A stretch of 64,000 nucleotides of DNA, from IMG/VR virus record IMGVR_UViG_3300047509_000037, positions 1-64,000 of that record; one strand, 5' to 3'. The translations under genes were made by a program, and so were the position numbers. The notes beneath the pieces are model-generated. The model saw nothing but the letters and a program-made list of their open reading frames with translations, ran no database searches and was not told the origin of the DNA. This document shows positions 19,976 through 48,239 of this stretch, piece by piece (position 1 is the first letter of the stretch; each line of letters opens with the position of its first letter). The stretch is from a virus.

Positions 19976-19994
19976 TTTTCTCAGGAGAACCAAC

Positions 19995-21668: not shown

Positions 21669-22541
21669 ATGGCATCAGAGGCGAACGTCCAACTCTACAT
21701 GGAAGGGTTGTGTAAAGTTGCGACCCAAGGAAACGTCTCTGTCAATTTCGCGTGGTTTGCGAACCGGATGGAGTTGTTCTGCAATAAGTGCAAGCAGACG
21801 TTGACCGCCGCGAAGCCTGAAGACACGACCATAGATTACGCGGTCCAAGAATTTCTCAAGCTGCATCTGCACAAGGTTCACCCGGACTATTGCTCGTGTG
21901 AGACCTGTGCTGCCATCGTCGCGCAAAAACAGAAAGAGACGTGGGGTGACAAAAAGAATCCGTGGGCTAAGAACGAAGTCCCTCTGACTGCGGACTTCAA
22001 GCCCGTGCCGCAACAATCGTTCACTGGCGAGGAAGCCTACAAGACCGCGATGGATGCGGCGCTCACGAAACCCGACGCGGTCGTGATGACAAACATCGAA
22101 GTGCCTGACCCGGACGGATATGGGCTGACGAACCTGCCCAAGATAAAACCGCCGATGAACAACTACGACAAGGATGCTCCATACCTTGCGGAGAAATTGA
22201 AATCGGTCCAGCAAGAGTACGCCGCGAAGGTGAACGACGTAGCGAACAAGATTAAGCTGCTTCAACTCTCGTCGCAGGAAGCGAAACTTGAGGCGATGCA
22301 ACAGAAGGTAGCCGCCGCTCAGAAAGCATTTGAGGAACAGGCGAAAGCTGTCACGGCGGAAGATGGGGTTTACTACTCGAAAGAGACCGTCGAGAAACTA
22401 AAGCAGCAACTAGAAGGATTCGGCTATAAGAAGCCGCTGCAAATCATACAGCATCAGCCTTACGTTCCGCCGCAACCGCCCGCTCCGGCTCCAAAGAAAG
22501 AGAAGCCGCTCAAGCAGGCAGCGGGAAGGAAAATCCGATGA
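21669..22541 (+). CDS. Hypothetical Zn-finger/coiled-coil protein with C-terminal GRKIR
   Basis: CNKC and CSCETC; ends KQAAGRKIR*. Confidence 0.75.
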   Translation: MASEANVQLYMEGLCKVATQGNVSVNFAWFANRMELFCNKCKQTLTAAKPEDTTIDYAVQEFLKLHLHKVHPDYCSCETCAAIVAQKQKETWGDKKNPWAKNEVPLTADFKPVPQQSFTGEEAYKTAMDAALTKPDAVVMTNIEVPDPDGYGLTNLPKIKPPMNNYDKDAPYLAEKLKSVQQEYAAKVNDVANKIKLLQLSSQEAKLEAMQQKVAAAQKAFEEQAKAVTAEDGVYYSKETVEKLKQQLEGFGYKKPLQIIQHQPYVPPQPPAPAPKKEKPLKQAAGRKIR

Positions 22542-22981
22542 GACTCTACGTCAAAGACAAGGGCTTCGAGGATTCAATAGTTGCGCTGAATCGGGAAGCC
22601 TTCAGCGGCATCGAACGTGCGCCGGATGGAATCGTCCGCGACACATTTCAGAATGCCGACGCGGTGTTCACGATTCACAACGACACGACGATGCTGGGCG
22701 CTGCGATGGTGACCACCAAAGCGGGCTACGGTCCTGAGCCGTACATCTGGAGTATCGCCGTCAAAGAATCGGCACGAGGTCTGGGGATCGGCGGCACGCT
22801 GCTCGACGAAGTTGCGCTCTACGCGAGGGAACTTCCCTCGACCGGAACATATCTGATTGTCAACAGCAACAACGCGAACGCCCAGCGACTTTACCTGAAG
22901 CACGGCTATCGCGTGATGAAATTTTTGCCACGTTACTACGGAAGCGACGGTGACGGGGTTATGATGAGGAGACCACTATGA
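22538..22981 (+). CDS. GNAT acetyltransferase (RimI-like)
   Basis: IAVKESARGLGIGGTLL motif A; NANAQRLYLKHGY; RYY...DGVMM. Confidence 0.85.
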   Translation: MRLYVKDKGFEDSIVALNREAFSGIERAPDGIVRDTFQNADAVFTIHNDTTMLGAAMVTTKAGYGPEPYIWSIAVKESARGLGIGGTLLDEVALYARELPSTGTYLIVNSNNANAQRLYLKHGYRVMKFLPRYYGSDGDGVMMRRPL

Positions 22982-23406
22982 GCCAAAACATTGAATGCAC
23001 CAACTGCCACGACGTTATCACTCTCGAAGGCGGACGCACGATTGAAATCCCTTTCGTGTGCAATCCCTGTCGCGTTGAAGCGGAACCCGTCGAGTCCAAC
23101 TACGAAGCGTCGGCTGAAGGTGAGCCGGAACTCGAACACGATTTCGCCACGACTGAGAACACTACGATTCTCATCAACGATTTGTCAGACCAGCTTGCCG
23201 CGTCACAAGAAACAGTGACGGTGCTCGTCGAGAAATTGACACAGGCTGAGGAGTTCATCGGCGCGGAAGTTGACCGCTCGACGAAGTTTCTCGAAGACCT
23301 GACGAACCTCACCCAGCGCAACGCCGAACTGGAACTCGAAGCGGAAGGTCTGAGAACCGCCGCCGCAAAGTTGCTCAAAGCGTTCCTTGAAAAAATCGAA
23401 CTCTAA
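22978..23406 (+). CDS. Zn-ribbon + coiled-coil protein
   Basis: CTNC...CNPC followed by heptad-like acidic region. Confidence 0.6.
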   Translation: MSQNIECTNCHDVITLEGGRTIEIPFVCNPCRVEAEPVESNYEASAEGEPELEHDFATTENTTILINDLSDQLAASQETVTVLVEKLTQAEEFIGAEVDRSTKFLEDLTNLTQRNAELELEAEGLRTAAAKLLKAFLEKIEL

Positions 23407-23677
23407 GAAGGGTGCTGCGCCCGTCCAGGCTGAGCACTCGTTTGAGCAGGCGTATATGGTGCAGGACGGAATCAAGCACGAGTTCACGGGCACGCTGTTC
23501 ATCCCCGCCCCGGCGAGGCGGCGAAAATCGAAGCCCGTGAGCGCGAGAGCCGACCGACACCAGAACTGACGCGTGACTCGTCTGTCGATTACACGACGGT
23601 CATCGCGCCGTTTCCCGGCAATGGACAACACAGCGAGTCAAGATGTCCGGTATGGACATGCTGAGATTGAGGCAAAA

Positions 23678-24379
23678 ATGAACGCAGCTATCTTCGTCAT
23701 ATCATGTTGGCAAAATTATGCGCGGCGTCAGGCTATCCGTGCGACGTGGGCGAAGCTCTCGCCACTTCCCGTGTACTTCGTTCTCGGTCGTCCGTCGTAC
23801 CTTATCGGAACTCCGAAGGAACCGGATGCGGTCGTTGTCAACGCGTTCGACGATTACATTCACCTTCCCGAAAAAGTTCATGCGATGGTCGATTTTGCGT
23901 CCGCGTCCTACGACAAGATTCTCAAGGTTGATGACGACGCGTTCGTTGCCGCCGACCGATTCCCGGCGAACATCCCAGACGCTTCCTACGTAGGGCACGT
24001 CTGTCAGAACAAACCGGGGAGCACTGTTTACTGTCACGGCGGCGCGGGCTACTGGCTCGACATGAAAGCTATGGCAGCCATCAACGTGAGCAAGCCGTCG
24101 GGTCTGTCCGAAGATGCCTACGTCGCTCGTGCGTGTTTCTCTCAGGGCATTCATCCCGTGAACGACACGCGATACATCGTTGAGTCAGGACCGTTCCGCT
24201 GGCATCGCTTGCCTCGTGCGTCAAACGACTTGCTCGTGACGAGTGAGTTCACCGCCGAAGAAATGGAGCGTTGTCTCCGCATGTATCAAGCGGACGACCG
24301 CGAAGACAAAATGTCCGCAGACGAATACAAAGCGAAGGTGCTCCGTGCCCGACCCGAAAATTCGCCAACGCAAATTTGA
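23678..24379 (+). CDS. GT31/Fringe-like glycosyltransferase
   Basis: RRQAIRATW, DDYIHLPEK, ILKVDDD, HGGAGY, SEDAYV. Confidence 0.8.
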   Translation: MNAAIFVISCWQNYARRQAIRATWAKLSPLPVYFVLGRPSYLIGTPKEPDAVVVNAFDDYIHLPEKVHAMVDFASASYDKILKVDDDAFVAADRFPANIPDASYVGHVCQNKPGSTVYCHGGAGYWLDMKAMAAINVSKPSGLSEDAYVARACFSQGIHPVNDTRYIVESGPFRWHRLPRASNDLLVTSEFTAEEMERCLRMYQADDREDKMSADEYKAKVLRARPENSPTQI

Positions 24380-24761
24380 GTGGGCGGAACCTGAACCACC
24401 TAAACTTGAATCTGAGTGGACGTATCAGTACCAGTATCAGGTCGGAAACAAAATCAAGACCGCGACAGGTCTGAAGACAGCGACCGCGACGAACGTATTG
24501 CTGGCGGGTAACACGCAGGTTCTCACGAAGGCGAAGTTGCAAGCGGCTGTGAAGGCTCTGGCGGCAATGCCGTCTAATCCGCCCGCGTTCATCATACACC
24601 CATTCGCAGTGAAAGACTTGCTTGACGATAGCAAGGTCGCTGTGATAGATTTGGAGACAGTGGAAGCGAAGGCGCTAATCGAACTTTGGGAGGAGAATGC
24701 GACATGGAAAAAACCAGAGCCAAAAGTCTATTCCTTCCCCTCATCATCTTCGCTCTCCTGA
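24345..24761 (+). CDS. Hypothetical protein
   Basis: GTG start overlapping the upstream gene. Confidence 0.45.
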   Translation: MPDPKIRQRKFEWAEPEPPKLESEWTYQYQYQVGNKIKTATGLKTATATNVLLAGNTQVLTKAKLQAAVKALAAMPSNPPAFIIHPFAVKDLLDDSKVAVIDLETVEAKALIELWEENATWKKPEPKVYSFPSSSSLS

Positions 24762-25333
24762 CGCCCGCTTTCGCTGCGAAGAAAATGTTTCCGGCTACGC
24801 GTGACAGCGTGCCTGCGGAGAACCGCAGAGCCGACGCCGCCGGGATACCGAGATACAGGGACGAGCGTTCGATGGCTGGTGACGTTGAACGCAGAGTGCT
24901 TGTCCCTGTTCCAATTACGTGCAACAAGAAGTTGCCGGAGAACCGAAGATATGTTCGCGTGGACACCGCCGACTTCATGCTCGAACTGGACACACGTTTC
25001 CATTTGGCGACTGGTGGCTGGCTTGTGGTTAACTCTGCCGTTCGCCCTGCGACAGTCCAGAAACGATTGGCGTCTCGCAATCGCAACGCTGCGCCTGCCG
25101 ATGGCGCGAGAGCGTCGTCTCACGAACGTGGCACGACATTCGATTTGAGCAAGAGGATGCGGCGCGGGCAACTCCGCTGGCTGCTCATCCAGTTGATGTG
25201 TTATCGGTCGATGGGGAGAATCCTCATCATCGAAGAAAGAGCGTGCATTCATGTTTACGTCGATGCCGGAATCCTACCGACAGGAATTGCTGTCGGAGCC
25301 GAAAGCGGTGGTGACTACATTCACGAAATGTAG
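24704..25333 (+). CDS. Secreted peptidase M15/DUF5715-like (Hedgehog/DD-peptidase fold) cell-wall hydrolase
   Basis: Signal peptide; VNSAVR...Q, SSHERGTTFDLS, CIHV zinc ligands. Confidence 0.7.
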   Translation: MEKTRAKSLFLPLIIFALLTPAFAAKKMFPATRDSVPAENRRADAAGIPRYRDERSMAGDVERRVLVPVPITCNKKLPENRRYVRVDTADFMLELDTRFHLATGGWLVVNSAVRPATVQKRLASRNRNAAPADGARASSHERGTTFDLSKRMRRGQLRWLLIQLMCYRSMGRILIIEERACIHVYVDAGILPTGIAVGAESGGDYIHEM

Positions 25334-25479
25334 GCACGAGCAAGTCTCCGGCGGGAACGTCGCGGACCCCGGCGCTGAAATGAAGCGCCAGCTTTTGCAC
25401 GTTGAGTTCAAGACGCAAGAGGGGATGTGTCCCGTGTGCAACGGAGAAATCCCGGCGCAAAATTTCGTTCGTAGCCGAT

Positions 25480-25566
25480 GGGCGTTATGGGGAATTGGCT
25501 GGCCCCGGCTAGGGGAAGCAGGGTTACAGCCTAGTGGGAGTGGAGGTTCGATTCCTCTCGTGCCCG
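25480..25566 (+). ncRNA. tRNA-like element with a 16-nt anticodon loop
   Basis: GGGCG/TGCCC acceptor, GGGG/CCCC D-stem, GCTAGG/CCTAGT stem, GGAGG-TTCGATT-CCTCT T-arm; no encoded CCA. Confidence 0.5.
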
Positions 25567-25841
25567 ATGTGCGGCACCCAATCGTTCTGCGGGAGCACGT
25601 CCCTGGGGGATGGTGAGCGCCAACAACTGCTGCGTTGCCTCAGTCCAGCGCCACTGTAAACTCCATGCGGCGCGTATCAGAATGTAACAAACAAGCGCGA
25701 GGTCATCAACGCCCAGCGCCCGTTACCGCCGCGTCTTCCCGTGCAAGAAATGGCGGGTGAAACCGACCAGTTTCCGCGACCATGAGGGCGGCGTTTACAC
25801 GGTTGTTATCTAGTAAACAAAAATTTCTAAAAATTATTTTT

Positions 25842-25876
25842 GCCCACCGCTCATCCCGGTGGGCGTTTTTATTTTG
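25842..25876 (+). terminator. Rho-independent terminator
   Basis: GCCCACCG...CGGTGGGC followed by GTTTTTATTTT. Confidence 0.7.
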
Positions 25877-26727
25877 TACCGCCGTCGGCAGCGGGACGAC
25901 CGGGACGTTGACGCCGGGGAACCTACGACCGGGAGCGGGGTAACCACGAAAAATTTTAGAAAAATTTCAGGCAGGTTACCTGCCCCCGGATGTAATTTTT
26001 ACACGCACAAGTACAGGGCGTTGGCTTAGGCAAGGCCTGGCGGCGGCACAAGGACACCGGGTGGGTGACCGCACCCGCCCTTCGCCGGAGAGGAGGTAAC
26101 ATCCTTTGGCTCAACGACTTAGCAGGTTGACCTTCGCTCTGTCTTCTCCCTCGAACTTTATCGCGGAAGTCCTTTGGTATGCGTCAGATGCAGACCAGCC
26201 CGTCACTCACTGCCAATTGTAGTCCCAAATGTAGTCTTATCATGCACTTACAGCGATGAAACAAAACGTCATATTGTTTCATGGCACGAAAGTGGTGTGC
26301 GATAGCGCGAAAGTGGGCGGAACAAGAGGCGAAGTTCGGGGCGTAGCCTCAGCCCTTGGATTGGCGAAGCGATGGCGAAGGGTTTCGCTCTCTGTTCCCT
26401 GTTACCTTGTGCTGTTAGATAGTAACAGCGAATGAGAAGCGAAGGCGAGCTGGCTGGGCATTCGCATTCCCTTCTCCCCTGTTGTTACAAATAAACTCCA
26501 GCGAAGCCACGAGCCTTGACACCGACGCCTGTTGTGTGCCTCTGCATATCTCTCTGGTATCTCCTCTGCGTTCTCCTGGTGACCGACTCTGGGTGCGTGC
26601 CCGAATTGCTCGGTGAGCGTGTTACGTTGTAACAACACGTAGGCGAACATAAAGCGAACACGCGGAATAGACTAATGGACGTGCATCGCAATAGACTAAT
26701 GAGAGCACAGCGAAGGAATAGCGAACA

Positions 26728-26988
26728 TCACCACGAGGTAGGAATGCCCTTCAGGGCGAACACAGAGCGAAGCTGCGCGTAGCGTGCGATGGCTCGTAGT
26801 TCGTCTGGTGTGCCGTCTGACTTCATGCGGTTTGCTCTGCCTGAATGGGACGCCACGTTTGCGTGCTCTTGACTTGGCTGCACGCCACAGGTACAATGCG
26901 CGGTTTGTGTGCGCTCGTGCTTGCTGTAGACTGCTTTGCACGTGGCGATGTTCTTCGCGCCATGCGTGCATCGTTCGATTATAGGCAT
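26728..26988 (-). pseudogene. Degenerate HNH endonuclease with deleted catalytic core
   Basis: YLWRAAKSRARKRGVPF (one frame) is joined directly to RANRMKSDGTPDELRAIARY (another frame). Paralogues at 18710 and 49514 have the CPVL/SLDR core in between. Confidence 0.65.
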
Positions 26989-27170
26989 AGAGACCTCCAT
27001 GCTCAGAATAGCACGATTTGCGCTCACCTGTCAACCAGCCTGTCAATGGCACGATGGTGTTATATGTAAACGACACGAAGGTGCTAGGTCGGCATAGCAC
27101 TCTCGTGCCGTTCCCATGTGTGCCCGCTTCCTATATGATTTAGAAAGTAAATCGCAGTGAGGAGACGGCA

Positions 27171-27476
27171 ATGACATCGCAAACACTGGCAGCACTCGAA
27201 GGTTTCATCGCAGCACTGAACGCGAAGTTCAACACCATCGACGGCACGACCACGGGCTACGTGTTCAGCATCGACCGCCCCGGCATCAAGTTCACACGCA
27301 TCGTCCAGCGTGGCGTCAACGGCGGGCTATCGCGGTCGGTCTATTGCTTCGTGGACGCCGACGGCAACATCTACAAGGCGGCTGGCTGGAAGGCACCTGC
27401 TAAGGGCGTGCGGTCCACGCTGGCGACTGTTGATGTGTCTAAGGTTGACCCTTACGGCTCGTGGCTCTATCGCTAG
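27171..27476 (+). CDS. Conserved phage early protein (GNIYKAAGWKAPAKGVR type)
   Basis: GAGGAG RBS; SVYCFVD...YKAAGWKAPAK motif. Confidence 0.75.
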   Translation: MTSQTLAALEGFIAALNAKFNTIDGTTTGYVFSIDRPGIKFTRIVQRGVNGGLSRSVYCFVDADGNIYKAAGWKAPAKGVRSTLATVDVSKVDPYGSWLYR

Positions 27477-28061
27477 GTCGAACGCCCGCAAGGGCGTCCA
27501 GCCGTTAGGCGGCTGCTGAGGAGACCAATATGGGACACGCATCAACAGCAATGCGAGTGAGAGAAGCGAAGGAACGCAAGCCCGAAGACTTCTGTGCCAA
27601 TCCACGCTGCCTGGCGCATTCGCACGGCGCAAGGTTTGAACCCTTGCAAGAAACATCCGGTCGCAACTGTCCCGGCGCTAGTGCCGACTCAGACCACGTT
27701 CGATGTGCTCAAGGTGCGCTAGACTTGACACGCGTGTTAGACTTTAACTCTGGAGGATGCCATGTACGGTTTTGAAGCGAAGCACATAGCACGGCGCATT
27801 GCGATGCACGACGACAAGTGGGCGAGGATGAGCGCATGATTGACCCTAACCATCTGTTCACCGTGCATCACACGTACACGGGGCTGGGCTGCGCCGTCTG
27901 CGGTCTCGCGCCGTGTGAGCACCCGTCGTTCGATTGGCTGGTCGAAGGCGAGAAACGAATCGACCCTCTAGACAGGAGCAATGCGCCATGCGTCGTCATC
28001 ACAGGCAGCACCATTCGCAAGTGGAAGAACCGCGACTGCCGCACGCGAGAGGTCGTGGAAC

Positions 28062-28448
28062 ATGTATAGGCATTTTCAGCGCAACAAAGCGGCGGCGAAG
28101 ATTCAGCAACGCGAGTGGGAGAGAGCCGCCAAGCGTGCTCAACGTGCGGAGGAGTTTATAAGTAAACCGTGCCCGTATTGCGGCACGATGATGACAATGG
28201 GAGACGACAATCCGAACACACTCACGAGTGAGAGCGAAGACCACATCGTGCCACGCTGCAAAGGCGGACGCGCTACCGTCGTCGTCTGTGTCGCGTGCAA
28301 TCGCGATAAGCATCACCTGGGCCTGGGCGAATATCGCGCCGTGCTCTGCGTTCGTCGGCGCACGTTTCACGTGTTCTACTTTGAGCGACAGGCGGCGCTG
28401 CATCTGCTCTGGAATGCGCTGGCATTGTTCAACAGGTTTGCGATATGA
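28062..28448 (+). CDS. HNH endonuclease
   Basis: CPYCG...EDHIVPRCKGG...CVACNRDK. Confidence 0.8.
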   Translation: MYRHFQRNKAAAKIQQREWERAAKRAQRAEEFISKPCPYCGTMMTMGDDNPNTLTSESEDHIVPRCKGGRATVVVCVACNRDKHHLGLGEYRAVLCVRRRTFHVFYFERQAALHLLWNALALFNRFAI

Positions 28449-28822
28449 ACACGCGTCGAAATTACTTCAGCGCATCAAAGCGGGCACGCATCGCAGGCGA
28501 TGAACTCGCGGCTGCTATCGCGGCATCTTCACGTGAATGGCACACCTATATGATTCTCGCAGAAAAGACGAAGCTGGTGAAGATTGGACACGCACGCGAT
28601 GTTGCGAAACGTCTTGAGGGTTTGCGTGCTGTCAATGCAGACTCACTCCGGCTGCTATGCGTGGTGCCTGAGACCGAGAAGGAATTGCACAAGCGGTTCG
28701 CGCATCTCCGCACGCACGGCGAATGGTTCAAATATCACAACGATATTCGGTGGTTCGTCGAGCACCGTTCCTCACGGGAAAATCACCAAGAACTACCTGC
28801 CCAAAGCGAATTATCCTCGTAA
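28445..28822 (+). CDS. GIY-YIG (T5orf172/MUG113-like) nuclease-domain protein
   Basis: TYMI...VKIG...KRL...EKELHKRF...GEWF. Confidence 0.8.
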   Translation: MNTRRNYFSASKRARIAGDELAAAIAASSREWHTYMILAEKTKLVKIGHARDVAKRLEGLRAVNADSLRLLCVVPETEKELHKRFAHLRTHGEWFKYHNDIRWFVEHRSSRENHQELPAQSELSS

Positions 28823-28861
28823 GTCGTTGATTCTAAACCGAAAATAGTTGAAAGATTTATG

Positions 28862-28916
28862 TTGCAAGGTTCCGGGTATCTGCTATGATTGTTTCAGTTC
28901 GACGGTCCTTGACAAC
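28862..28916 (+). promoter_or_regulatory. Sigma70-like promoter followed by a boxA-like element
   Basis: TTGCAA-16nt-(TG)TATGAT with AT-rich upstream region; GGTCCTTGACAAC at 28904 resembles rrn boxA. Confidence 0.55.
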
Positions 28917-29510
28917 CTAAGCAGAAGCCCACAGGGGAGAGGCAAAGCAAAGCCCCTGAGACTAGCCGAAGCGGAATAGAAGTCCTGAGACGGTGACCGA
29001 AACCGTTTCATACCAGCGTAACGCACTAATGCAAGCCGAAACCGGACAGTCCTAGAACATCCGGCAGGGGCTACAGGATGCGAACCGCGAGACGCCGCAC
29101 AACGGCACGGTATGAGGCGCAACGGCTGAACCCGTAAGGCTGAGTGAACATCCTGACCACTCAAATCATCGGCTCCACGGAGCGAGATGGAAACACAACG
29201 ACAGCGCACAATCGAAAACGTGTAGCGTTCACGAACCCAGAAAGCAGATTGCCTTCGATGGCAAACGGCACGTGCAGACGACCGTATCTGACGACAATGA
29301 GAAGCGTGAATGCTGCGAGTCAGTCGATTGACTAACGATTACCTGTTCCGCATCTCCCGCGAAAGCGGTTGGAACAACGGGCGCATCCCTCGTGGGTGCG
29401 CTCGAAAATTTCTGGAGGCTACGAAACGCAGACGTGTGGACCTGGATGAAGCGAAGACCGAAAATCCTAGCAGGGTATCAGGGCGTGGTAGTAGAGACGG
29501 CAACACCGTC
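28896..29510 (+). ncRNA. Candidate large structured RNA / long leader (~620 nt)
   Basis: No credible ORF; many hairpins (GAGACGGT/ACCGTTTC, CCGC-GAAA-GCGG, GGGCGCATCC/GGGTGCGCTC, GACGG/CCGTC). Confidence 0.45.
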
Positions 29511-29534
29511 AAATCGCAGTGAGGAGCAAACATC

Positions 29535-30458
29535 ATGGCATCACTCGCACCCGCATTCAATCAGACAGTCAACGTCACGAAGGCAACCCAAGAATGCGTG
29601 TACATCACGACGCACTATCACATGGGCATCGGTCGGATGCGACAGATTAGCCTCGACACGAAGAACGTCACGACCGCTGACGCGTCGGAACTGCGTCACC
29701 AGAAGCGGCTGATTGATTCGCCTGAACTCGACGCCATCCGTTCGCAGGATGGATTCATGCAGCGCCACATCGACAGCGTCACCTGTGCTTGCGACAAGAG
29801 CACGCGGTTCCTGCCGAAGCCCGAACTGGCGAAGCTGTACAAGGCGCTGGTCGCATACCAGACCATCCGGCGTCCGAAACTCGTGGACGCATTCATGGCG
29901 AAGTATGAAGCCCTCGAAGCTGCGGACTTCACGCCACTGGCTGAAGTGCTGGGCGACAAGTTTGACCGTGCCGATTATCCGAAGGCTGACACGGTTCGCG
30001 CTGGCTTCTACATGACGTTCCGCATTCGTCCGGTCGGTAGCGTGAACCTTGAAGGCTGCCCTGACTTCGTCATTGCGATGGAGTTGGAGAAAGAACTGAG
30101 CGAACGCACTGCCGCAATCGAAGCGTGGAAGGACACGCTGCGGTTGGCTGGTCTCGCTGCCGTAGAGACCCTGGCGAAGGCACTGTCGCCTGACCCGGAT
30201 GGCAAGCGCAAGAAACTCTACGAGAGCAACGTCGAGAACCTGAAGCAATACCTCGACACATTCACCAACCGCGACCTCGCCTCTGACATCGAATATCAGA
30301 AGACGGTCGTCGAACCGCTGAAAGCTATGATGCGCGGCGTCTCAATCGAAAAGTTGCGAGAGAGCGACAACCTGAAAGTTGAAATCGCTGCCAAGCTGGA
30401 AGGCATCAAGAAGAATGCCAGCCGGCTCGTGCAAGTCACTGGTCGTAAAATTCGCTAG
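29535..30458 (+). CDS. DUF3150-like protein with C-terminal GRKIR
   Basis: KRLIDS..., LGDKFDRADYP...VRAGF, GKRKKLYESNVENL; ends VTGRKIR*. Confidence 0.65.
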   Translation: MASLAPAFNQTVNVTKATQECVYITTHYHMGIGRMRQISLDTKNVTTADASELRHQKRLIDSPELDAIRSQDGFMQRHIDSVTCACDKSTRFLPKPELAKLYKALVAYQTIRRPKLVDAFMAKYEALEAADFTPLAEVLGDKFDRADYPKADTVRAGFYMTFRIRPVGSVNLEGCPDFVIAMELEKELSERTAAIEAWKDTLRLAGLAAVETLAKALSPDPDGKRKKLYESNVENLKQYLDTFTNRDLASDIEYQKTVVEPLKAMMRGVSIEKLRESDNLKVEIAAKLEGIKKNASRLVQVTGRKIR

Positions 30459-30509
30459 ACAACAGCCCTCCCCCGGCTGTACACTTCAAAAGTTCACGAG
30501 GAGAACACA

Positions 30510-30713
30510 ATGAAGACATTCGCTACGTTGTTCGCTATCGCGGTAGGCTTCTGGTGCTTCCCGCTTATCGGCATCGCGGTCGCTGCGATTGCTCTGGTAT
30601 GTTTGCTCGTGGACGACAGCAGCACTCGCACGCAGAAAGAACTGGTCAAGAAATATGCTCAAGCAAAAAAGATGTCAACACAATCGCGCTCTACACCTTT
30701 GCCGAGAGTGTAA
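30510..30713 (+). CDS. Small membrane protein
   Basis: GAGGAG RBS; hydrophobic N-terminal half. Confidence 0.5.
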   Translation: MKTFATLFAIAVGFWCFPLIGIAVAAIALVCLLVDDSSTRTQKELVKKYAQAKKMSTQSRSTPLPRV

Positions 30714-30888
30714 CGGCGTAGGGTTTTGTGAGCATGACAAACTTCGCACCTACTGCACACGATGCAAGGGCGGTGGAACCTGCCAACATGGGCGGGTTCG
30801 ATAATCGCATGAAGATGTCGCAAACCGAATCCGAATTTCTGAAACAGGTTGCACGTATCTACAAACTTCGCATTGAGGAGATTTAGTC

Positions 30889-32451
30889 ATGTCTAAGACA
30901 TTCATTCAGATGTTCACGGATGCCCGCGCAGTCTCGACACCGAACGTCGCAATCAAGACGTTCGACAACGCGTCCACCATCCAAGGTATTCGCGCTTCAC
31001 TCGGCGGCGAACTCGCTGAGTTAACGCCGTTCGTATCGTGGGATGGTATCCACGGTCTCAAAGGTCTGAACGACTCCGGCGTCGAAGCGGTCGATGCGAT
31101 GTGCAAGAAAGCTGACGGCGGCGCTGGGGTTGACCGCGCTGCCACGGTTGACTTGACCATCTGTCTCGCCACGCTTGAAGAAGCGGACGAGGATGTCATC
31201 GCCTTCATTCACAACCCGCAATTGTTTTGGGACAAAGACCCGCGTGCCATTCAGGGCATGTGGAATCTGCGTGACCCCAACAAGGCGGCTGGCAACATGC
31301 TGGTGCTCTTGCTTGGTCCTGGCGACGAACTGCCTGCGGAACTTCAGCAGGACACGCTGGTGCTCGAAGAACCGTTGCCCACGCGTGACCAGCTTGCGAA
31401 AATCGTGACCGACACCTACGGTTACTTCGCACAGAAATATCCCGCGTGCAAAAAGGGACCGTCGGCTGAAGTGCTCAAGGCTGCGGTCGATGCACTCATC
31501 GGTCTGCCAGCGTTCCCGGCTGACCAGGCTGTTGCGATGTGCTTGGACAAAGCCACGGGCATTCTCGACATCGAAACCCTGTGGGCACGCAAGCGCAGCA
31601 TCGTGAGCCAGAACCCCGGACTCAGCTACCACGCTGGGAAAGAGAAGCTGGCTGACATGTACGGATGCGCCCCGATTCAGGCATTCGGCAAGGCTTTCAT
31701 GGGCGGCAAGTTCGCTCCCACACTCATCGTCCGCATGGATGAAATCGAAAAGCAATTCGCTGGCGCTGGCACGGATAGCAGCGGCACGAAAGGCAACCTG
31801 CTTGGTGAGTGGCTGACGTGGGTGAACGACAAGCGCATCGTGTGCTCGTTGTTCGTCGGCGTTCCGGGTTCGTCCAAGTCGCACAGCGTTTACTGCATCG
31901 GCGGCGAGTACGGTCGTCCGGTCATCAACTACAGCATCCCCGGCATGGAGCATGAGCACGTCGGCATGTCTTCACGTCACCAGCGCACAGCGCACCGCGT
32001 GCTGGACGCAATCAGCGACGAGAAAATCTGGCTCATCGCTACTGCGAACAACATCGACGGCTTGCCGCCGGAGCTAATCTCCCGGTTCCAAGTCGGCGGC
32101 ATTTTCTTCTTCGATGCTCCTGACTCCGATGAGAAGCAGGGCATTATGAAGCTGAAGATGAAAGCCTACGGTCTCGACGCAAACCAGGACGTTCCGAACA
32201 TGGACGACTGGACTGGTCGTGACGTTGACAACTGCGCTCGTAAGGCGCTCACGCTGGGTATCGACTTGGACAACGCGTCGAAGTTCATCGTGCCACTGCT
32301 CCAGTCACACGGGGCGCAGATGGATGCACTGCGGCAATCCGCCAGCGGTCGCTTCCTCGCAGCCAACAAAGAAGGCGTGTACAAATACAGTCCTCCTGTT
32401 AAGAAACCTATTGTCACCGTCACAAACCCTGAGGGTAGGAAAGTCAGGTAG
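30889..32451 (+). CDS. Ycf46-like AAA+ ATPase with permuted core and C-terminal GRKVR
   Basis: Walker B IVRMDEIEK precedes Walker A-like GVPGSSKS; sensor-1 IATANN, LPPELISRF, IFFFDAP, WTGRDV. Confidence 0.85.
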   Translation: MSKTFIQMFTDARAVSTPNVAIKTFDNASTIQGIRASLGGELAELTPFVSWDGIHGLKGLNDSGVEAVDAMCKKADGGAGVDRAATVDLTICLATLEEADEDVIAFIHNPQLFWDKDPRAIQGMWNLRDPNKAAGNMLVLLLGPGDELPAELQQDTLVLEEPLPTRDQLAKIVTDTYGYFAQKYPACKKGPSAEVLKAAVDALIGLPAFPADQAVAMCLDKATGILDIETLWARKRSIVSQNPGLSYHAGKEKLADMYGCAPIQAFGKAFMGGKFAPTLIVRMDEIEKQFAGAGTDSSGTKGNLLGEWLTWVNDKRIVCSLFVGVPGSSKSHSVYCIGGEYGRPVINYSIPGMEHEHVGMSSRHQRTAHRVLDAISDEKIWLIATANNIDGLPPELISRFQVGGIFFFDAPDSDEKQGIMKLKMKAYGLDANQDVPNMDDWTGRDVDNCARKALTLGIDLDNASKFIVPLLQSHGAQMDALRQSASGRFLAANKEGVYKYSPPVKKPIVTVTNPEGRKVR

Positions 32452-32453
32452 GT

Positions 32454-32834
32454 ATGCGCGATATTAAGAAACTGAAAGCGAAATGGTATCGCCATGCTCA
32501 CTCCATCGGTGGAAAGTATCGAAACACTCGGGCGAGTGCTAAGAGACGAGGACTCCAATTCACTCTTACACTCGCGGAGTTTAGGGCTATCCTAAAGAAG
32601 CCGTGTGCCTACGGTGATGCCATCCACAGTCTGAAGTTACACGTCGGCATCGACCGGAAGGACAACCAGCGCGGGTACGTTCGAGGTAATTGCGTGGCGT
32701 GTTGTGGAAAGCACAATCACATCAAAGGCACGTGGGCGTCGTATCGCCAGATGCGTTCTCTGATGCAAGAGTGCAAGAACAAAGCATTCACCACTTGCCA
32801 AGACAACGTGGGCGGGCGTAAAATTCCATCTTAG
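32454..32834 (+). CDS. HNH-like endonuclease
   Basis: AKRRGLQFTLT...GIDRKDNQRGYVRGNCVACC..HN.IK. Confidence 0.75.
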   Translation: MRDIKKLKAKWYRHAHSIGGKYRNTRASAKRRGLQFTLTLAEFRAILKKPCAYGDAIHSLKLHVGIDRKDNQRGYVRGNCVACCGKHNHIKGTWASYRQMRSLMQECKNKAFTTCQDNVGGRKIPS

Positions 32835-32844
32835 GAGCATTCAC

Positions 32845-33258
32845 GTGAAAGCATTCCCGAAGACAGAGCGAAAGATTCTGACGGTCACCATCGACGAGAA
32901 CGGTGACATGTTATATCTAAAAACTGATTCGTGCGATGTGCTTCTCGAACTCGGTGAGACAGTCACGAAGCGTGCGAGTCACGTTGAGCCTGTGAGCGTG
33001 CCCCTGCGGTACGCGTTCAGGTTGCTCCGCATGTTCGGAGATAAGACACGCGTGGCAGAGTGGACGCGTCACTGGCAATGCGAATGGCTGGTGGACACGA
33101 GACCCGTCGGTGGTCCGGTGCTCACGTATGCCGATGTCGAGCCGCGCTACAAAAACTTGAGTGCGCCAATCGGCAAGCGCATCGCAACATGGCGCAATCG
33201 CCAGGACGCGATTGACGCCGAAATTATTTTCTTGAACGAATGGTTCCTCACGCGGTAG
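32845..33258 (+). CDS. Conserved 'RASHVEP' protein of AAA/DUF1257/DUF2997 modules
   Basis: KRASHVEP...W.VD..PVGGPVL...RQDAIDAE..FL. Confidence 0.65.
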   Translation: MKAFPKTERKILTVTIDENGDMLYLKTDSCDVLLELGETVTKRASHVEPVSVPLRYAFRLLRMFGDKTRVAEWTRHWQCEWLVDTRPVGGPVLTYADVEPRYKNLSAPIGKRIATWRNRQDAIDAEIIFLNEWFLTR

Positions 33259-33285
33259 AATCCAATTCTCGAAGGGAGCAACACC

Positions 33286-33720
33286 ATGAGCGAGTATCGC
33301 AAGAGCACGACGAACTGCAAAGACCGGGAAGTGCTGATTGGCGCACTGATTGAGATGGGCTACAAGCGTGAGCACATCGAAATCCACGAGCAAGCCCAGC
33401 AGCTAATCGACTTCCAAGGGCACCCCACACGCTACATCGACCCGACAGGCGACAAGGCGAACGTCATCGTTCGTCGCAGGCATGTGGGCGGCGCTGCGAA
33501 CGACCTTGGGTTCAAGCTGAATCCAGAGACGGGCACCTACGACGCAATCATCAGCCGCTACGACAGCGGCAAGCACAATGCGAAGTGGCTTGCTGGTCTG
33601 AAGACGAACTACGCTGAGAAGGGCTTGGCGAAGACCCTGAAGAAACAGGGCTTCAAATATCTCGGCAAGGAAATCGTCAACGGCAAGATTCAAATCAAGT
33701 ACATGGACATGAAGGCGTAG
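33286..33720 (+). CDS. DUF1257 (Ycf35-like) protein
   Basis: MSEY..., LIGALIEMGY, ANDLGF...GTYDAIISRYD, KKQGF. Confidence 0.75.
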   Translation: MSEYRKSTTNCKDREVLIGALIEMGYKREHIEIHEQAQQLIDFQGHPTRYIDPTGDKANVIVRRRHVGGAANDLGFKLNPETGTYDAIISRYDSGKHNAKWLAGLKTNYAEKGLAKTLKKQGFKYLGKEIVNGKIQIKYMDMKA

Positions 33721-33755
33721 AGCCAACATCCAAATTCAACCAGGAGAAAAACATC

Positions 33756-33950
33756 ATGGCGAAAATTCTGACAGCGACGATTGACCCCGCGACCGGAGAG
33801 ATGGAAGTTGACCTCTCCGGCTACAAGGGCAAAGGTTGCCACGCGGTTCAAGAGGCAATCAGCAAAGCGATGGGCAGCACGACCATCGAAGACAAACGCA
33901 AGCGCGAGTACAACGACGTGGAAGTGAGCAAGGTCTGCGTCCGGTCGTGA
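33756..33950 (+). CDS. DUF2997-like small protein
   Basis: IDP.TGEMEVDLSGYKGKGC...MG...KREY. Confidence 0.7.
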   Translation: MAKILTATIDPATGEMEVDLSGYKGKGCHAVQEAISKAMGSTTIEDKRKREYNDVEVSKVCVRS

Positions 33951-34312
33951 ACCAGCCCGCATACAAGGGACACGTCGTCGAGTATCGTGCATACCACGAT
34001 GCCCGACGGCGATGTCTGAATCCGAAATGCGCAGACTACCCGAACTACGGCGGACGTGGAATCCAATTCCTGTTTGCATCGTTCGAGGAGTTCTTCGACG
34101 TGCTAGGCGAACGCCCGCCGGGGAAGATGCTTGACCGCATCAACAACGATGGGCACTACGAGAAGGGCAACGTCCGGTGGGCGTCTCGTGCCGTGAGCCT
34201 CAAGAACCAGAGGCATCCGAAGATTGCCAGCCTAGCGAACTTCACAACGTCCGAACTGCTGGCGGAACTCGCCAAGCGAATCTCCAAAGGGGAAATCAAA
34301 TGTTCATTGTAA
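33947..34312 (+). CDS. HNH endonuclease
   Basis: RRCLNP...YPNYGGRGI...LDRINNDGHYEKGNVRWA. Confidence 0.8.
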   Translation: MNQPAYKGHVVEYRAYHDARRRCLNPKCADYPNYGGRGIQFLFASFEEFFDVLGERPPGKMLDRINNDGHYEKGNVRWASRAVSLKNQRHPKIASLANFTTSELLAELAKRISKGEIKCSL

Positions 34313-34695
34313 CGCCAAACGGAGTAATCATCGACGCTCAAGAGTACGCACGCATCATCACCCGCCTTGCCTTCAAGGTGCTGAAGTCCAGCATCGAAGA
34401 CAAAGACATCCAGCGTTTGCTGCCCTTCCAGACCTCTCTGGAACTCGGCAACCACGTCCACATCGTGAACGAATCAGCCTACGCGGTTGAGACGAAGTAC
34501 CACGTCATCACCGACGGCGATACGCTCTGTGCTCGTGGCGGTCGTCCGCGTGGCACCGTGACAGGCACAGCGCCCACGTGCCCAGGCTGCTTGGCGAAGG
34601 CTCAGGGCATCGTCGTCAACCACCTGCTCGACCAAGCGGCGGGAGATTTTCTCGCGGTCGCTTACAAACTTCAGGAGGTTGCTGAGGGCAACTAA
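34300..34695 (+). CDS. Hypothetical protein with H/C zinc site
   Basis: H...LC...TCPGC. Confidence 0.55.
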   Translation: MFIVTPNGVIIDAQEYARIITRLAFKVLKSSIEDKDIQRLLPFQTSLELGNHVHIVNESAYAVETKYHVITDGDTLCARGGRPRGTVTGTAPTCPGCLAKAQGIVVNHLLDQAAGDFLAVAYKLQEVAEGN

Positions 34696-34832
34696 TGACC
34701 GAGCACTAGGAGACCCTATGAAATTATTTTTCTTCGCAGGCGGCAGTATCGTGTATGCTCTGTGTGTGGTCGTAGCCGGAAGATTTTTGAAACTGGTTCG
34801 CACTCCCCCAACTCCAACACCGGAGAAACCAA

Positions 34833-35195
34833 GTGCCACTAGCAACATTCGCCGGAGTGCCTGATGGTCCCGTCATCGCATTGGCAAAACTGAGGCTGGA
34901 GAAATCCAAACTCAAAATGCCGTGCGAGACGCGGGCGCAAGCACTGAACATCCTGCGTAGCATTCAACCAGCACCAGCGAAGAATGCGCCGCTCAACATC
35001 AAATCAGCCTCGGTCGTGCATGACGCGTGCCGCAACTGTGGTAAGCCAATACCGTTCGGGACTCCATGCAAGGTGTGCTTCAACGGCGAACTGCCAGAGC
35101 ACATCTCGTGCAAGAAAGTCAGCAAGACCAAGCGGCAAGAGGAAGCGGCATTGCGTAAGTTGTACCTCGAAGCCATCAAACAAGTCTCGTGGTAA
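34833..35195 (+). CDS. Hypothetical Zn-finger protein
   Basis: CRNCG...CKVC. Confidence 0.5.
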   Translation: MPLATFAGVPDGPVIALAKLRLEKSKLKMPCETRAQALNILRSIQPAPAKNAPLNIKSASVVHDACRNCGKPIPFGTPCKVCFNGELPEHISCKKVSKTKRQEEAALRKLYLEAIKQVSW

Positions 35196-35356
35196 TTCGC
35201 ATTTCAACTCAGCCCTGAGGAGGGTCATCATGCCTGGATACGGAGCGAAGGAAGCACGCATCAACAAAGAGCGCCAGCCGCGAGTCAATCTGTGTACCTG
35301 CGGGAAAGAAATTGACAACGGTGCGCTCCTGTGTCAAGATTGCTATGAGGAGATTC

Positions 35357-35878
35357 ATGGACAATCAAACACAGAAGTTAACGAGGGGCGCGAAGTCTCG
35401 TAGGAAATGGCGTAGTCGTTGTATCGAACAGGGTTTGTGCGTGGGGTGTGGGCGAACTCCCAACACGGGTGGTCCGCCGCACATGTGCGAACCCTGTGCA
35501 ACGCGCCAGAAAAATTATGGAACTGAACGTCGTGCGCGGGCAAAGTCAATCGGGCTGTGTACCCTTTGCGGTAAGAACCCTCCGATTGTTGGACGACGTT
35601 TATGTTCCGCGTGCGTGCTCTACCACAAGTTAAGCGATTTGAGGAGTGCGGGTTTATCGGAAGCTGAGGTAGACCGTGCCCATCATGCCGTCATAAATTT
35701 TCAAAACCTGTGCGATGCGTGTGGTCGCAATGACTGTGGAAGGTGGTGTCTAGACCATGACCACGACAGAAAAATCTTTAGAGGAATCGTCGGAAACAAG
35801 TGTAACCTCGCCCTTGGGCACGCCCGCGACAATGCAGACACCCTACGGCTACTCGCCGCATACATCGACCGAAGATGA
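35357..35878 (+). CDS. Endonuclease VII-family endonuclease with N-terminal Zn fingers
   Basis: GLCVGCG, GLCTLCG repeats; CDACG...LDHDH...FRGIVGNKCN. Confidence 0.8.
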   Translation: MDNQTQKLTRGAKSRRKWRSRCIEQGLCVGCGRTPNTGGPPHMCEPCATRQKNYGTERRARAKSIGLCTLCGKNPPIVGRRLCSACVLYHKLSDLRSAGLSEAEVDRAHHAVINFQNLCDACGRNDCGRWCLDHDHDRKIFRGIVGNKCNLALGHARDNADTLRLLAAYIDRR

Positions 35879-35992
35879 GGGTGAGGAAGCGCGGCGGACC
35901 CGATGACGTGCAAACGTTGTGGACTCGCCCGCCCAGAGCGTTACGGCATAGGCTGGCGCTGTGGGTGCTGCGGGTTGTTATATGTAACAGAC

Positions 35993-36065
35993 GGGGTTGG
36001 GGTAGTGGTATCGGCAGGGTCTCCAAAGCCCATGCCAGCAGGTTCGACCCCTGCCAGCCCCGCCA
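35993..36065 (+). tRNA. tRNA-Trp(CCA), weak D-arm
   Basis: GGGGTTG/CAGCCCC-G-CCA acceptor; loop CT-CCA-AA; GCAGG-TTCGACC-CCTGC. Confidence 0.7.
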
Positions 36066-36496
36066 AATAGCCAGAAATGCCACTTTCCCGCCCCCGCCCT
36101 GAGGGTTTGGGCGTCGGATGGGTCTTAGCCTACCCTGGCACGCCGGAGGGCTTAAATCGACCGCAAACGCAAAACGGAGGGCTATGAGCCAAGCTGAGAG
36201 TAACAGGACGCGCCGGGGTGCCATATCCGAGCTACAAACCGCCGCCGACCTGAGCGACGACTGGCGAATGGCGTCATCATTCGACCGAAAGGAATCCATG
36301 AGCTACTGGACAGAAAAAATCGGATGGCGTGAGAGCATCACGACGCTGTGCGGCTGGCTGAATGAAATCATCCCGCTCATCGCGTTCGCGTTTCTCATCG
36401 CGCTGTGGATGAGTGGTGCCCGATGAGTTGTAATCGACAACAGAAATATGATGCACAAACCTTAGAACGGTTAGCAAAATACTTGAGGAGGCGAAC

Positions 36497-36688
36497 ATGA
36501 GTTTCACAGCCTTCTTTCAGGCAGATGGTGAACTGCGCTACACCATCGGCACGACGAAGATGCAACACACCGCAGACTTCGCCGCAGAGAATTTCATCAA
36601 GCGCATGACGCACCCTGAGGTTGGTATCTGGTGGGTGTGGGTCGAGGAGACCAATGACCCGGACGACGAAGCAAAAAGAAATCGCTAG
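36497..36688 (+). CDS. Hypothetical protein
   Basis: GAGGAGG RBS. Confidence 0.55.
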   Translation: MSFTAFFQADGELRYTIGTTKMQHTADFAAENFIKRMTHPEVGIWWVWVEETNDPDDEAKRNR

Positions 36689-36851
36689 TCATTGCACGTG
36701 CCCGCATTGTAAGCTGGCTCACAAGATGCCCGCCTACGTCTACGCACATTGGGAAGACGCGTTCACCGTGACGTGTGCCGATGAAGGCGAGACCAAGGGA
36801 TGCGGCAAACAGTTCGAGATGTTTCAGGGAGAGACCGAATGTATAAACTGA
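36654..36851 (+). CDS. Small Zn-ribbon protein
   Basis: CPHC...TC...GCG. Confidence 0.5.
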   Translation: MTRTTKQKEIASHCTCPHCKLAHKMPAYVYAHWEDAFTVTCADEGETKGCGKQFEMFQGETECIN

Positions 36852-37480
36852 ACGGTAAGAACCTCAGCCTCGCACGTCTCATCCCACGAGGGAAAGACGC
36901 GGACAAGCGTTTGAAATATCTCCACGTCAACAACAAGGGCGTCACCGCTGTCAGCCCCGAACTGGTCGCACGCGTCACACTGCCTGACGGTGTAGCGCAG
37001 CCCCAGCAGTCGGTCATCTACCCGCAGGAGTCTCTTGATTCGATTCCGATGGGAGCACGTGCGCCGGAGAGCAACGAACTGGTGACACTGACTGGAGACA
37101 AGCCCGCGTTCACAGGTCCGCACTATCTCGTGCCGATGGTGGACAAGTGCTTCCCAGAGCCGACAGAGACCACCGCGACGTTCACGTGCAACGGAGAACT
37201 TCTCCGCAAGCTGCTCACGGTCGCGTGCGAAGTGTGCAACGACAGCAACAAGACTCTGCGTCTTCGCATCGTTGACAACGGCAAGGCTCTACGCGTGGAC
37301 ACGTATCGCCAGCCGGGAGAACAAGAATTTTGTGGCGTCATCAAACCAATTGAGTACGACGGCGATTACATCCCCGGCGAGATTCCATCAGGTACGCCGA
37401 AGGTCGAGAAGAAACCTCAGCAGACAGGTCTGTTGCTGAAGACCAGCGCCGGGAGGAAAATCCGAGGCGAGGGTGAGTAA
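36839..37480 (+). CDS. Possible degenerate beta-clamp-fold protein with near-terminal GRKIR
   Basis: C-terminal FCGVIKPI resembles clamp-like C-terminal strands; ends SAGRKIRGEGE*. Confidence 0.5.
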   Translation: MYKLNGKNLSLARLIPRGKDADKRLKYLHVNNKGVTAVSPELVARVTLPDGVAQPQQSVIYPQESLDSIPMGARAPESNELVTLTGDKPAFTGPHYLVPMVDKCFPEPTETTATFTCNGELLRKLLTVACEVCNDSNKTLRLRIVDNGKALRVDTYRQPGEQEFCGVIKPIEYDGDYIPGEIPSGTPKVEKKPQQTGLLLKTSAGRKIRGEGE

Positions 37481-38669
37481 CGGTTGCTTCCATGAGATGC
37501 AGAATGGCGCTACCGCCGTCATCCGGCATCAAATGATTAACGGAGACATCTGGGTTAGGTGTCTTCGATGCGGCGACACGTGGCACTCCGAGGAGGAGTT
37601 CGCAATGAGCACAGGCACGGGGAAAGCGAAATGCAAACACACTCAGTGGACCACCGACAAGGTGACCGGGGTGAAGATGTGTACGGATTGCGGCACTGAC
37701 CTTGCCAAACATCCGAAGTGCAATCACGCCCTGGCGAAAATCGTCATCGAAAATGGAATGACGAAGACGCAATGTGAGAAGTGCGGAGTGATTGTCACAG
37801 AGGGTCCGGTGCAATCCGTGAAGGTTCCGCTGGGCTATGAGAAGCGATTGCTCCCGATTCCGAACGTGCGCCCCGTCGGACAGTGGGTCAAGGAAGGATT
37901 CGGAGCATTCCAGCCGAAGACACGACAGCAAGCGCAGATTCTCATCGACGAGTGGAACGAAGCATGTCAGACGAACGGCATGAAAGTTGAGTACCGCCTG
38001 CCCGTGGTGAATGTTGACTTACGTTGCAAGAAATGCGATACTCTCGTGAACGAGACGTACAAGGGCGATGTCTGCCTCTCGTGTCACCTTCAGGAGAAAA
38101 TGGCAATGGCGAAAGAACCTAAGGTCTCGAAGTCGAACCCCGATTTTGATATTTACGGAATGCCTGTCTGGAAGACCAAGAACAAACCCGCGTTCAACGT
38201 TAACAGCACTCCGGCGAAACCTGTCACGAAGAAACCAACTCTCATGGTCGTGCCGAAGGCTCCTGTCGTTCACACCGAGGGAGACATCTGGGAATTACCA
38301 CACGTCAATGCTCCGTTTATGAGTAAGCAATGGGCGTACCAAGGCAGCGCATCGACGCCGTATGTCATCACGCACTACCAGACCAAGCGCGATGGCGCGG
38401 TGACGAAAGATGGTTGGGCTTGCTCGTGCATGAATTTTACGCGGAAGACCCCACGCACCGAATGCAAGCACATCCTGAAGACGATGATGAAGAACGGCAC
38501 GAAGCCCACGGCTGATGCGAAGCTGGCGGCGGTACCCGATGAGACCCTGAAGGCGTTCCAGAAGTGGCAGCGCGAACAAGCGGCGGCGGGCGTCCCGGTC
38601 GGTGCGGGCGTCGGCGCTGAGAAGGGCAAGCTGAACATGTTTGAGAACAAGGGGAGGAAAATCCGATGA
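37473..38669 (+). CDS. Multi-Zn-finger protein with SWIM domain and C-terminal GRKIR
   Basis: Several CxxC pairs; WACSCMNF...ECKHI SWIM motif; ends NKGRKIR*. Confidence 0.75.
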   Translation: MSNGCFHEMQNGATAVIRHQMINGDIWVRCLRCGDTWHSEEEFAMSTGTGKAKCKHTQWTTDKVTGVKMCTDCGTDLAKHPKCNHALAKIVIENGMTKTQCEKCGVIVTEGPVQSVKVPLGYEKRLLPIPNVRPVGQWVKEGFGAFQPKTRQQAQILIDEWNEACQTNGMKVEYRLPVVNVDLRCKKCDTLVNETYKGDVCLSCHLQEKMAMAKEPKVSKSNPDFDIYGMPVWKTKNKPAFNVNSTPAKPVTKKPTLMVVPKAPVVHTEGDIWELPHVNAPFMSKQWAYQGSASTPYVITHYQTKRDGAVTKDGWACSCMNFTRKTPRTECKHILKTMMKNGTKPTADAKLAAVPDETLKAFQKWQREQAAAGVPVGAGVGAEKGKLNMFENKGRKIR

Positions 38670-38980
38670 AGCATATCGCAATTTTCAGGGTAGAGGGGTA
38701 CTCCAAAACGGGAACCGACCAGGCTTTCGTCACGGGGAAAGGCGAGGAGTCAGTGACCACGCATCTCAAGGCGGACAGTTGGAATCCCGGCGCACGCATC
38801 GGAGCGTTCACACTGCACTCGCTGGAGAGCAAAGCACCTGAGTGGAAGGATGGTTTCATCGTCACTCTGGAACCGTTGCCACCAAAGCCCGAAGGCGCGG
38901 ACTACACCGGATATCTAAAGCAGGTAATCGCGGAGAAGCTAGACCCAACTCCAGCACCGAGCGGGAGAAAAATCCGATGA
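38666..38980 (+). CDS. Hypothetical protein with C-terminal GRKIR
   Basis: ATGA-coupled; ends PSGRKIR*. Confidence 0.7.
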   Translation: MKHIAIFRVEGYSKTGTDQAFVTGKGEESVTTHLKADSWNPGARIGAFTLHSLESKAPEWKDGFIVTLEPLPPKPEGADYTGYLKQVIAEKLDPTPAPSGRKIR

Positions 38981-48226: not shown

Positions 48227-48239
48227 CTGGAGGGTGCCA

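Follow-up and report, generated by a model that had tools for sequence, protein, structure and literature searches.

The window analyzed here, the first 64 kb of the 96,151-bp contig of a soil phage (IMG/VR record IMGVR_UViG_3300047509_000037), carries on its plus strand six genes whose otherwise unrelated products share the C-terminal tail GRK[IV]R. All six lie in the early/middle region, near replication and recombination genes. Two of them are neighbors: the gene for an AAA+ ATPase of 520 amino acids (family A, 30889-32451), which ends NPEGRKVR with the motif at 32434-32448, and upstream of it that for a DUF3150-like protein of 307 amino acids (family B, 29535-30458), which ends LVQVTGRKIR with the motif at 30441-30455. 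The remaining four encode proteins of 290 amino acids (family E, 21669-22541; ending QAAGRKIR, motif at 22524-22538), 226 amino acids (family C, 36800-37480; SAGRKIRGEGE, motif at 37451-37465, four residues before the end), 398 amino acids (family D, 37473-38669, with an N-terminal zinc-ribbon-like motif; NKGRKIR, motif at 38652-38666), and 104 amino acids (family F, 38666-38980; PSGRKIR, motif at 38963-38977).

A preliminary description of this DNA had listed six shared tails on unrelated proteins, and our analysis confirmed all six. In a six-frame translation of the entire 96,151-bp genome, GRK[IV]R has these six matches only, each at a C terminus or four residues before it, in plus-strand open frames of 107 to 520 codons; a slightly looser pattern adds a single match, an off-frame GRKLR on the minus strand. 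The corresponding degenerate DNA pattern occurs six times where shuffled sequences predict 0.47, a count reached in 0 of 100 shuffles. In the count of C-terminal k-mers that the preliminary description had suggested, GRKI and RKIR rank as the commonest 4-mers of this genome. The fuller consensus of the tail reads hydrophobic-x-hydrophobic-x-x-G-R-[KR]-h-R, where h is again a hydrophobic residue. Families B to F drew nothing from Pfam, PHROGs, or NCBIfam, and in the literature searched we found no published account of the tail or of what the gene module to which it belongs does.

The ATPase matches the Pfam AAA family (PF00004, E 4.6e-06, above the cut-off) and phrog_8638, and a profile built from 28 homologues gives a weak match to VCP-like ATPases in the PDB. 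Its AlphaFold2 model (predicted local distance difference test score [pLDDT], 84) consists of two stacked alpha/beta tiers of nucleotide-binding type that resemble D1-D2, and the top Foldseek matches are the D1-D2 parts of p97, Cdc48, AFG2, NVL, and Rix7 (probability 1.00, template-modeling [TM] score up to 0.53). Judged by this model, the protein is a two-tier, Cdc48/p97-like member of the AAA+ classic clade. The DUF3150-like protein owes its name to the ESM Atlas, where its structure matches a cluster of DUF3150 proteins (TM 0.88); its AlphaFold2 model is helical, and Foldseek and VIA-align returned generic helical bundles only. The earlier remark that a flexible linker precedes most of the tails is broadly right. 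In the models, pLDDT is 55 to 67 for residues 501 to 520 of the ATPase and below 50 for the final pentapeptide of the DUF3150-like protein.

Both genes are part of a cluster at 29535-33950 that continues, on the same strand, with the genes for a 137-amino-acid protein with an invariant RASHVEP motif (32845-33258), a DUF1257 (Ycf35-like) protein (33286-33720; Pfam PF06868, E 9.7e-07), and a small DUF2997-like protein (33756-33950; a weak PF11211 match, E 0.0083, below the cut-off, with orthologues that align and clear PF11211 matches in two relatives, phage Tunturi_3 and the distant contig L026). These three proteins are tail-less, the first being a candidate partner and the other two candidate receptors in the reading that we develop below. 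PDB profile searches with the DUF1257, RASHVEP, and DUF3150 proteins found nothing. The related sequences available to us comprise five IMG/VR genomes or fragments (G001-G005) and 62 metagenome loci, and the sole relative in INPHARED is Tunturi_3. Tunturiibacter phage Tunturi_3 is a 97.6-kb podovirus of an acidobacterium (PMC11924767). The module families are encoded together on one strand in the window, in G001-G005, in Tunturi_3, and in L026, where the DUF1257-like protein was recognized by its N-terminal motif without a Pfam match and the RASHVEP protein was not found. The order in relatives is ATPase, DUF3150-like, RASHVEP, DUF1257, and DUF2997, and Tunturi_3 has all five; in the window, the DUF3150 gene stands upstream of the ATPase gene, with an HNH gene in its usual place. 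The RASHVEP protein (82 homologues in all) has orthologues encoded beside DUF3150 and DUF1257 in G001, G002, G004, G005, and Tunturi_3.

The preliminary description had taken the tail to be specific to this phage, which was not borne out: it belongs to a widespread module of a p97/Cdc48-like AAA+ ATPase, DUF3150, DUF1257, and DUF2997, joined here by the RASHVEP protein. With a threshold of E <= 1e-10, a search of 5.8 billion proteins gave 292 homologues of the ATPase; about 115 of the 120 listed, which are 55 to 78% identical, end in (G)RK[MFIVL]R with 0 to 2 further residues. When 28 homologues were aligned, R517 and R520 were invariant and K518 was at least 90% conserved, while the preceding linker varied. 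For the DUF3150-like protein, the tail, LVxxTGR[KR]FR, is present in 114 of 118 homologues (30 to 87% identical), the four without it being the lowest scoring or shortest; its hydrophobic residue is Phe in 111 of the 114, as against Ile in all five non-ATPase tails of this genome. The Tunturi_3 ATPase, at 38% identity, ends GRIIR, in different codons and with no downstream start.

The other families behave alike. After clustering, there are 50 unique tail-bearing members for the ATPase, 34 for the DUF3150-like protein, 8 for family C, 11 for family D, and 8 for family E, and families A to E all keep the tail in G001-G005 and the metagenome loci. Every locus of at least 9 kb has two to six motif-ending open reading frames (ORFs) on the strand of the ATPase gene and none or one on the opposite strand. 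Orthologues of family C end GRRFRGEGE, GRKFRGAGE, GRKFRGVE, or GRRFRS, and all eleven members of family D have the tail. Family E is alignable only over its first ~100 residues, its middle being variable, but its orthologues (G001-G005, L062, and L078) all end GR[KR]FR in spite of lengths from 116 to 310 amino acids. For family F, no homologue is detectable; in G004, L062, and L078, its place behind family D is taken by small tail-bearing ORFs. A single-protein scan of IMG/VR gave no matches, and a scan with the exact junction DNA matched 15 contigs. Two observations had been named as fatal to the proposal, orthologues that lack the tail and a tail kept only where its DNA doubles as the ribosome-binding site of an overlapping gene; instead, five families conserve it, and the two best sampled, the ATPase and the DUF3150-like protein, do so without any overlapping start, in agreement with the earlier claim of selection at the protein level. 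We conclude that GRK[IV]R is a genuine short linear motif of the C terminus, maintained by selection on the protein, and the form in which this lineage spells the module's conserved tail.

At three of the six tails, the DNA has a second role. Those ending at 22541, 38669, and 38980 (families E, D, and F) read GG[GA]AG[GA]AAAATCCG-ATGA, that is, a Shine-Dalgarno (SD) sequence 5 to 10 nucleotides upstream of an overlapping start, an 8-nucleotide spacer, and an ATGA start/stop overlap, and a real ORF follows each, with its ATG at 22538, 38666, and 38977, respectively. They are exactly the junctions known from ATGA translational coupling with the SD inside the upstream gene, and the dual coding of protein tag and SD, spacer, and start of the next gene is real in these three families. 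One might then suppose that the shared peptide is nothing but a by-product of coupling, the SD, the spacer, and ATGA being read in the upstream frame, and the overlapping tails of relatives indeed show a codon bias to AGG/AGA and CGA-TGA. We consider this explanation extremely improbable, and reject the SD as the sole cause, because the other three tails are not junctions of this kind and other ATGA junctions spell other ends. The tail codons of the DUF3150-like gene, GGT CGT AAA ATT CGC TAG, contain no SD and have no start nearby; those of the ATPase gene, GGT AGG AAA GTC AGG TAG, are followed by a separate ATG 3 nucleotides after the stop codon; and in family C, 16 nucleotides separate the motif from the next start (GTG 37473), too many for an SD role. 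Across about 60 loci, the ATPase and DUF3150 tails draw on all six Arg codons, CGN among them, and on all four Gly codons, with TAG or TAA stops, and the peptide is kept in over 200 homologues. The remaining ATGA junctions of this genome end PL, AI, DL, RR, or EP. The G-R of the tail can come from an SD, the K-h-R cannot, and coupling neither needs nor explains the K-h-R part and the non-overlapping tails. An internal control is provided by the 92-amino-acid protein encoded at 38977-39255 (plus strand), which ends NGRDIGK (DNA GGGAGGGACATCGGAAAATGA) and has an in-frame SD for the next gene, with G-R and without the motif. In two relatives (G002 and G004), a G+C-rich inverted repeat lies 3' of the stop codon of the DUF3150-like gene.

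A related proposal holds that the copies are a DNA-level cassette that recombination has spread between gene boundaries, with a functionless peptide. Such a cassette would fit the 12-nucleotide string AG[GA]AAAATCCGA common to four copies in this genome and the sequence GGNAGGARGTTCCGATGA found at several junctions in relatives. However, the synonymous differences between copies that had been pointed out before are borne out by codon comparison: among the non-overlapping copies, almost all synonymous sites have changed while the peptide is kept. Orthologues conserve the peptide far longer than the DNA, and in families A and B the synonymous-site divergence of the tail equals that of the rest of the gene. 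We attach next to no probability to this proposal either.

If the peptide is what counts, its composition invites another explanation, in which the tail is an AT-hook-like or arginine-rich appendage that binds nucleic acid and has no protein receptor. Three of its five residues are basic and sit on a flexible end, and the carriers are early/middle proteins encoded beside replication and recombination genes. Yet conservation is as high at the hydrophobic position and at the Gly as at the basic residues, a beta-like hydrophobic pattern precedes them, and the strict C-terminal position is unexpected for a generic binder. The core of an AT hook is Arg-Gly-Arg-Pro, which does not occur in the tail motif. 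In distant lineages, moreover, tails include an acidic residue near the end (KRKLDI). An appendage of this kind therefore seems improbable.

In our preferred reading, the tail is a shared docking or address peptide, which probably plugs the six proteins into one binding site on a putative receptor. In distant phages, in which the ATPase is 21 to 30% identical, that protein ends GRRRIDK, RRRKIDA, GKRQLDI, or IKRNIDL, and KRKLD[IV] is the ending of the DUF3150 protein, whose gene lies 1 to 2 kb downstream. On one of these contigs, DUF2997 and a DUF1257-like protein are encoded as well. Since the ATPase and DUF3150 tails are both respelled, two unrelated proteins change their tails together. Lineage by lineage, the two have the same kind of tail: GRKVR and GRKIR in this phage, GRK[MF]R and GR[KR]FR in its relatives, and KRxhD- and KRKLD[IV] in the distant phages. 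Among the close relatives, residues added after the motif covary as well, the DUF3150 protein having an extended tail in 3 of 3 cases in which the ATPase has one and an unextended tail in 17 of 18 cases in which it does not (Fisher p 0.003, phylogeny not corrected), and in G003/L103 four proteins have extended tails. The joint respelling and the covarying extensions indirectly support the claim of the preliminary description that one receptor reads the tail. The uniform Ile of the five non-ATPase tails in this genome, set against the Phe of most DUF3150-like homologues, points the same way.

Several points weigh against this reading. We infer both the binding to a single receptor and the receptor's identity, and the covariation tests rest on few independent lineages. 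A strict covariation of the hydrophobic residue among the proteins of one phage was looked for and not found: Met on the ATPase occurs with Phe on the others, and Ile with Phe, within single phages, and therefore any specificity at this position must be loose. The all-Ile state of this genome may partly reflect homogenization at the DNA level, given the 12-nucleotide string that four copies share. The AlphaFold2 model of the ATPase does not dock the tail onto the body of the protein. Finally, so strongly basic a tail could instead serve to contact nucleic acid or to signal degradation.

The possibility of degradation, the main rival, deserves a closer look. In this scenario, the tail would mark early proteins for timed removal or remodeling by an AAA+ unfoldase, the candidates being the pore of the module ATPase, a Clp-like ATPase of the phage, and host ClpX. 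Besides the p97-like ATPase, the phage encodes a single-ring ClpB/ClpA D2-like ATPase (48033-49280, plus strand), paired with a GroES-like protein (47013-47468, plus strand), and a permuted transfer-messenger RNA (tmRNA; 19588-20021, plus strand; found by ARAGORN; Rfam tmRNA_permuted score, 65 bits, gathering score, 47), which adds a C-terminal tag of its own. The tails are disordered and exposed, and the pore-loop region of the ATPase is acidic (A1 consensus, MEHEHVG), as would be fitting for the uptake of a basic peptide. Basic C-terminal tails are, furthermore, known ClpX signals, as in MuA (...RRKKAI). On the other hand, the ATPase itself is tagged in nearly all homologues, which one would not expect if this very ATPase recognized the tag as a degron, and a lineage-specific respelling tied to the module misfits a conserved host ClpX. 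The pair of GroES-like and Clp-like genes is conserved in G001-G004 and absent from Tunturi_3, whose ATPase keeps its tail, so that the Clp ATPase, which the preliminary description had considered as the reader, is unlikely to be a general one. On balance, we regard a degradation tag as unlikely, while granting it a real chance. As a separate observation, ARAGORN predicts the tmRNA tag peptide to be AKTNTLAMGAAAGR, which ends GR rather than the usual AA.

Packaging, another role raised in the preliminary description, is unlikely, as no protein of the structural module has the tail. A scaffold- or capsid-targeting signal was likewise discarded: mapping to Tunturi_3 places the structural genes on the minus strand, and none of their products carries the motif. 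Nor is family E the protein encoded between portal and capsid.

Short C-terminal docking peptides have precedents among ring ATPases. The HbYX tails of PAN, Rpt, and Cdc48 and the GQYL tails of mycobacterial Mpa and Bpa dock proteasome activators; in these systems, a ring AAA+ ATPase and several non-ATPases have in common a short motif at the extreme C terminus, which fits one receptor. The likeness to the phage system, with its Cdc48/p97-like two-tier fold and flexible tail, is one of logic only. In sequence, the basic G-R-[KR]-h-R is unrelated, being neither hydrophobic-Tyr-X nor GQYL, and some lineages tolerate one to four residues after the motif. This phage has no known ring receptor, proteasome-like or otherwise, and the binding is something that we infer. 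A second set of precedents consists of tails of adaptors and clients that the N-domains of AAA+ machines recognize, namely, the C-terminal XB peptide of SspB on ClpX, the MIM of ESCRT-III on the MIT domain of Vps4, and the ClpX signal of MuA. These too are short flexible C-terminal peptides that bring several proteins to one AAA+ machine, and the SspB and MuA tails are also basic and hydrophobic, but there the ATPase does not have the motif itself, and the sequences are unrelated. In gene content, there is a likeness to the Ycf46/Ycf35/DUF2997 set of cyanobacteria and plastids, in which Ycf46 is an AAA ATPase, and to the DUF3150 of mobile elements, in which the same families are encoded together; DUF1257 occurs, for example, in Synechococcus elongatus. 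None of Ycf46, Ycf35 (DUF1257), DUF2997, and DUF3150 has a described function, and the phage module adds to them the RASHVEP protein and the extra tagged proteins.

We propose that the docking peptide might operate as follows. By means of the tail, the ATPase and its DUF3150 partner would be held at a single common site, together with early proteins whose set can change and which here comprise families C, D, E, and F. The site would most probably lie within the module, on either the untagged DUF1257/DUF2997 partners or the ring of the ATPase. For families D, E, and F, a single cassette of five codons and a stop (GGN AGG AAA ATC CGA TGA) supplies the tag and translational coupling alike. A bolder version, which we put forward as a tentative possibility, makes the tail the address code of a phage protein-remodeling hub. 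In this version, the ATPase and its clients plug via G-R-K-h-R into a putative DUF1257 (Ycf35)/DUF2997 platform, and the client list is rewired by moving the five-codon cassette, in which the ribosome-binding site for the following gene is also contained.

Shared C-terminal docking peptides determine the partners of several major AAA+ machines, and the tail described here marks an uncharacterized module with a wide distribution among phages, those of soil included, as shown by over 290 ATPase and 732 DUF1257 homologues. It offers an experimental route to the partners and clients of the module and may lead to the function of ycf46 and ycf35; were the DUF1257/DUF2997 hub real, it would be the first functional handle on these orphan genes of cyanobacteria and plastids. 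A cultivable relative is at hand in Tunturi_3, which grows on Tunturiibacter psychrotolerans. The codes also overlap, the same codons serving as protein tag and ribosome-binding site, which suggests how new proteins may be recruited.

Among the neighboring genes, that for the HNH endonuclease (32454-32834, plus strand; PHROG HNH families) had been credited with a weaker form of the tail. Its product does end GGRKIPS, but HNH homologues lack this ending and the protein stands outside the tail set. The gene, lying where DUF3150 is usually found, may be a relic of a rearrangement. There is a likeness between the DNA of its ending (GGG CGT AAA ATT C) and the tail codons of the DUF3150 gene.

Each of the family E orthologues is followed by a gene for a GNAT acetyltransferase, as is family E in the window (21669-22981 for the pair, plus strand). 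In six related genomes in which this order was compared, the two genes share an ATGA overlap in five, and in G003 the GNAT ORF as called overlaps family E by 14 nucleotides. For family D, the ESM Atlas gives a weak SWIM-like lead. Its N-terminal zinc-ribbon-like stretch (37485-37586, plus strand) is, over 23 to 37 residues, 68 to 87% identical to part of a protein that this phage and its relatives encode in the head module (genome positions 89014-89769, minus strand), and family E of G001 contains the stretch internally. A last observation concerns the IMG/VR contig 3300021170_000010 (L023), whose ATPase, 37% identical, ends GARLLEVNG and in which several other ORFs end -IEVKG, -YVEVN, -IDLEEIG, or -GIDV, possibly another spelling of the same system.

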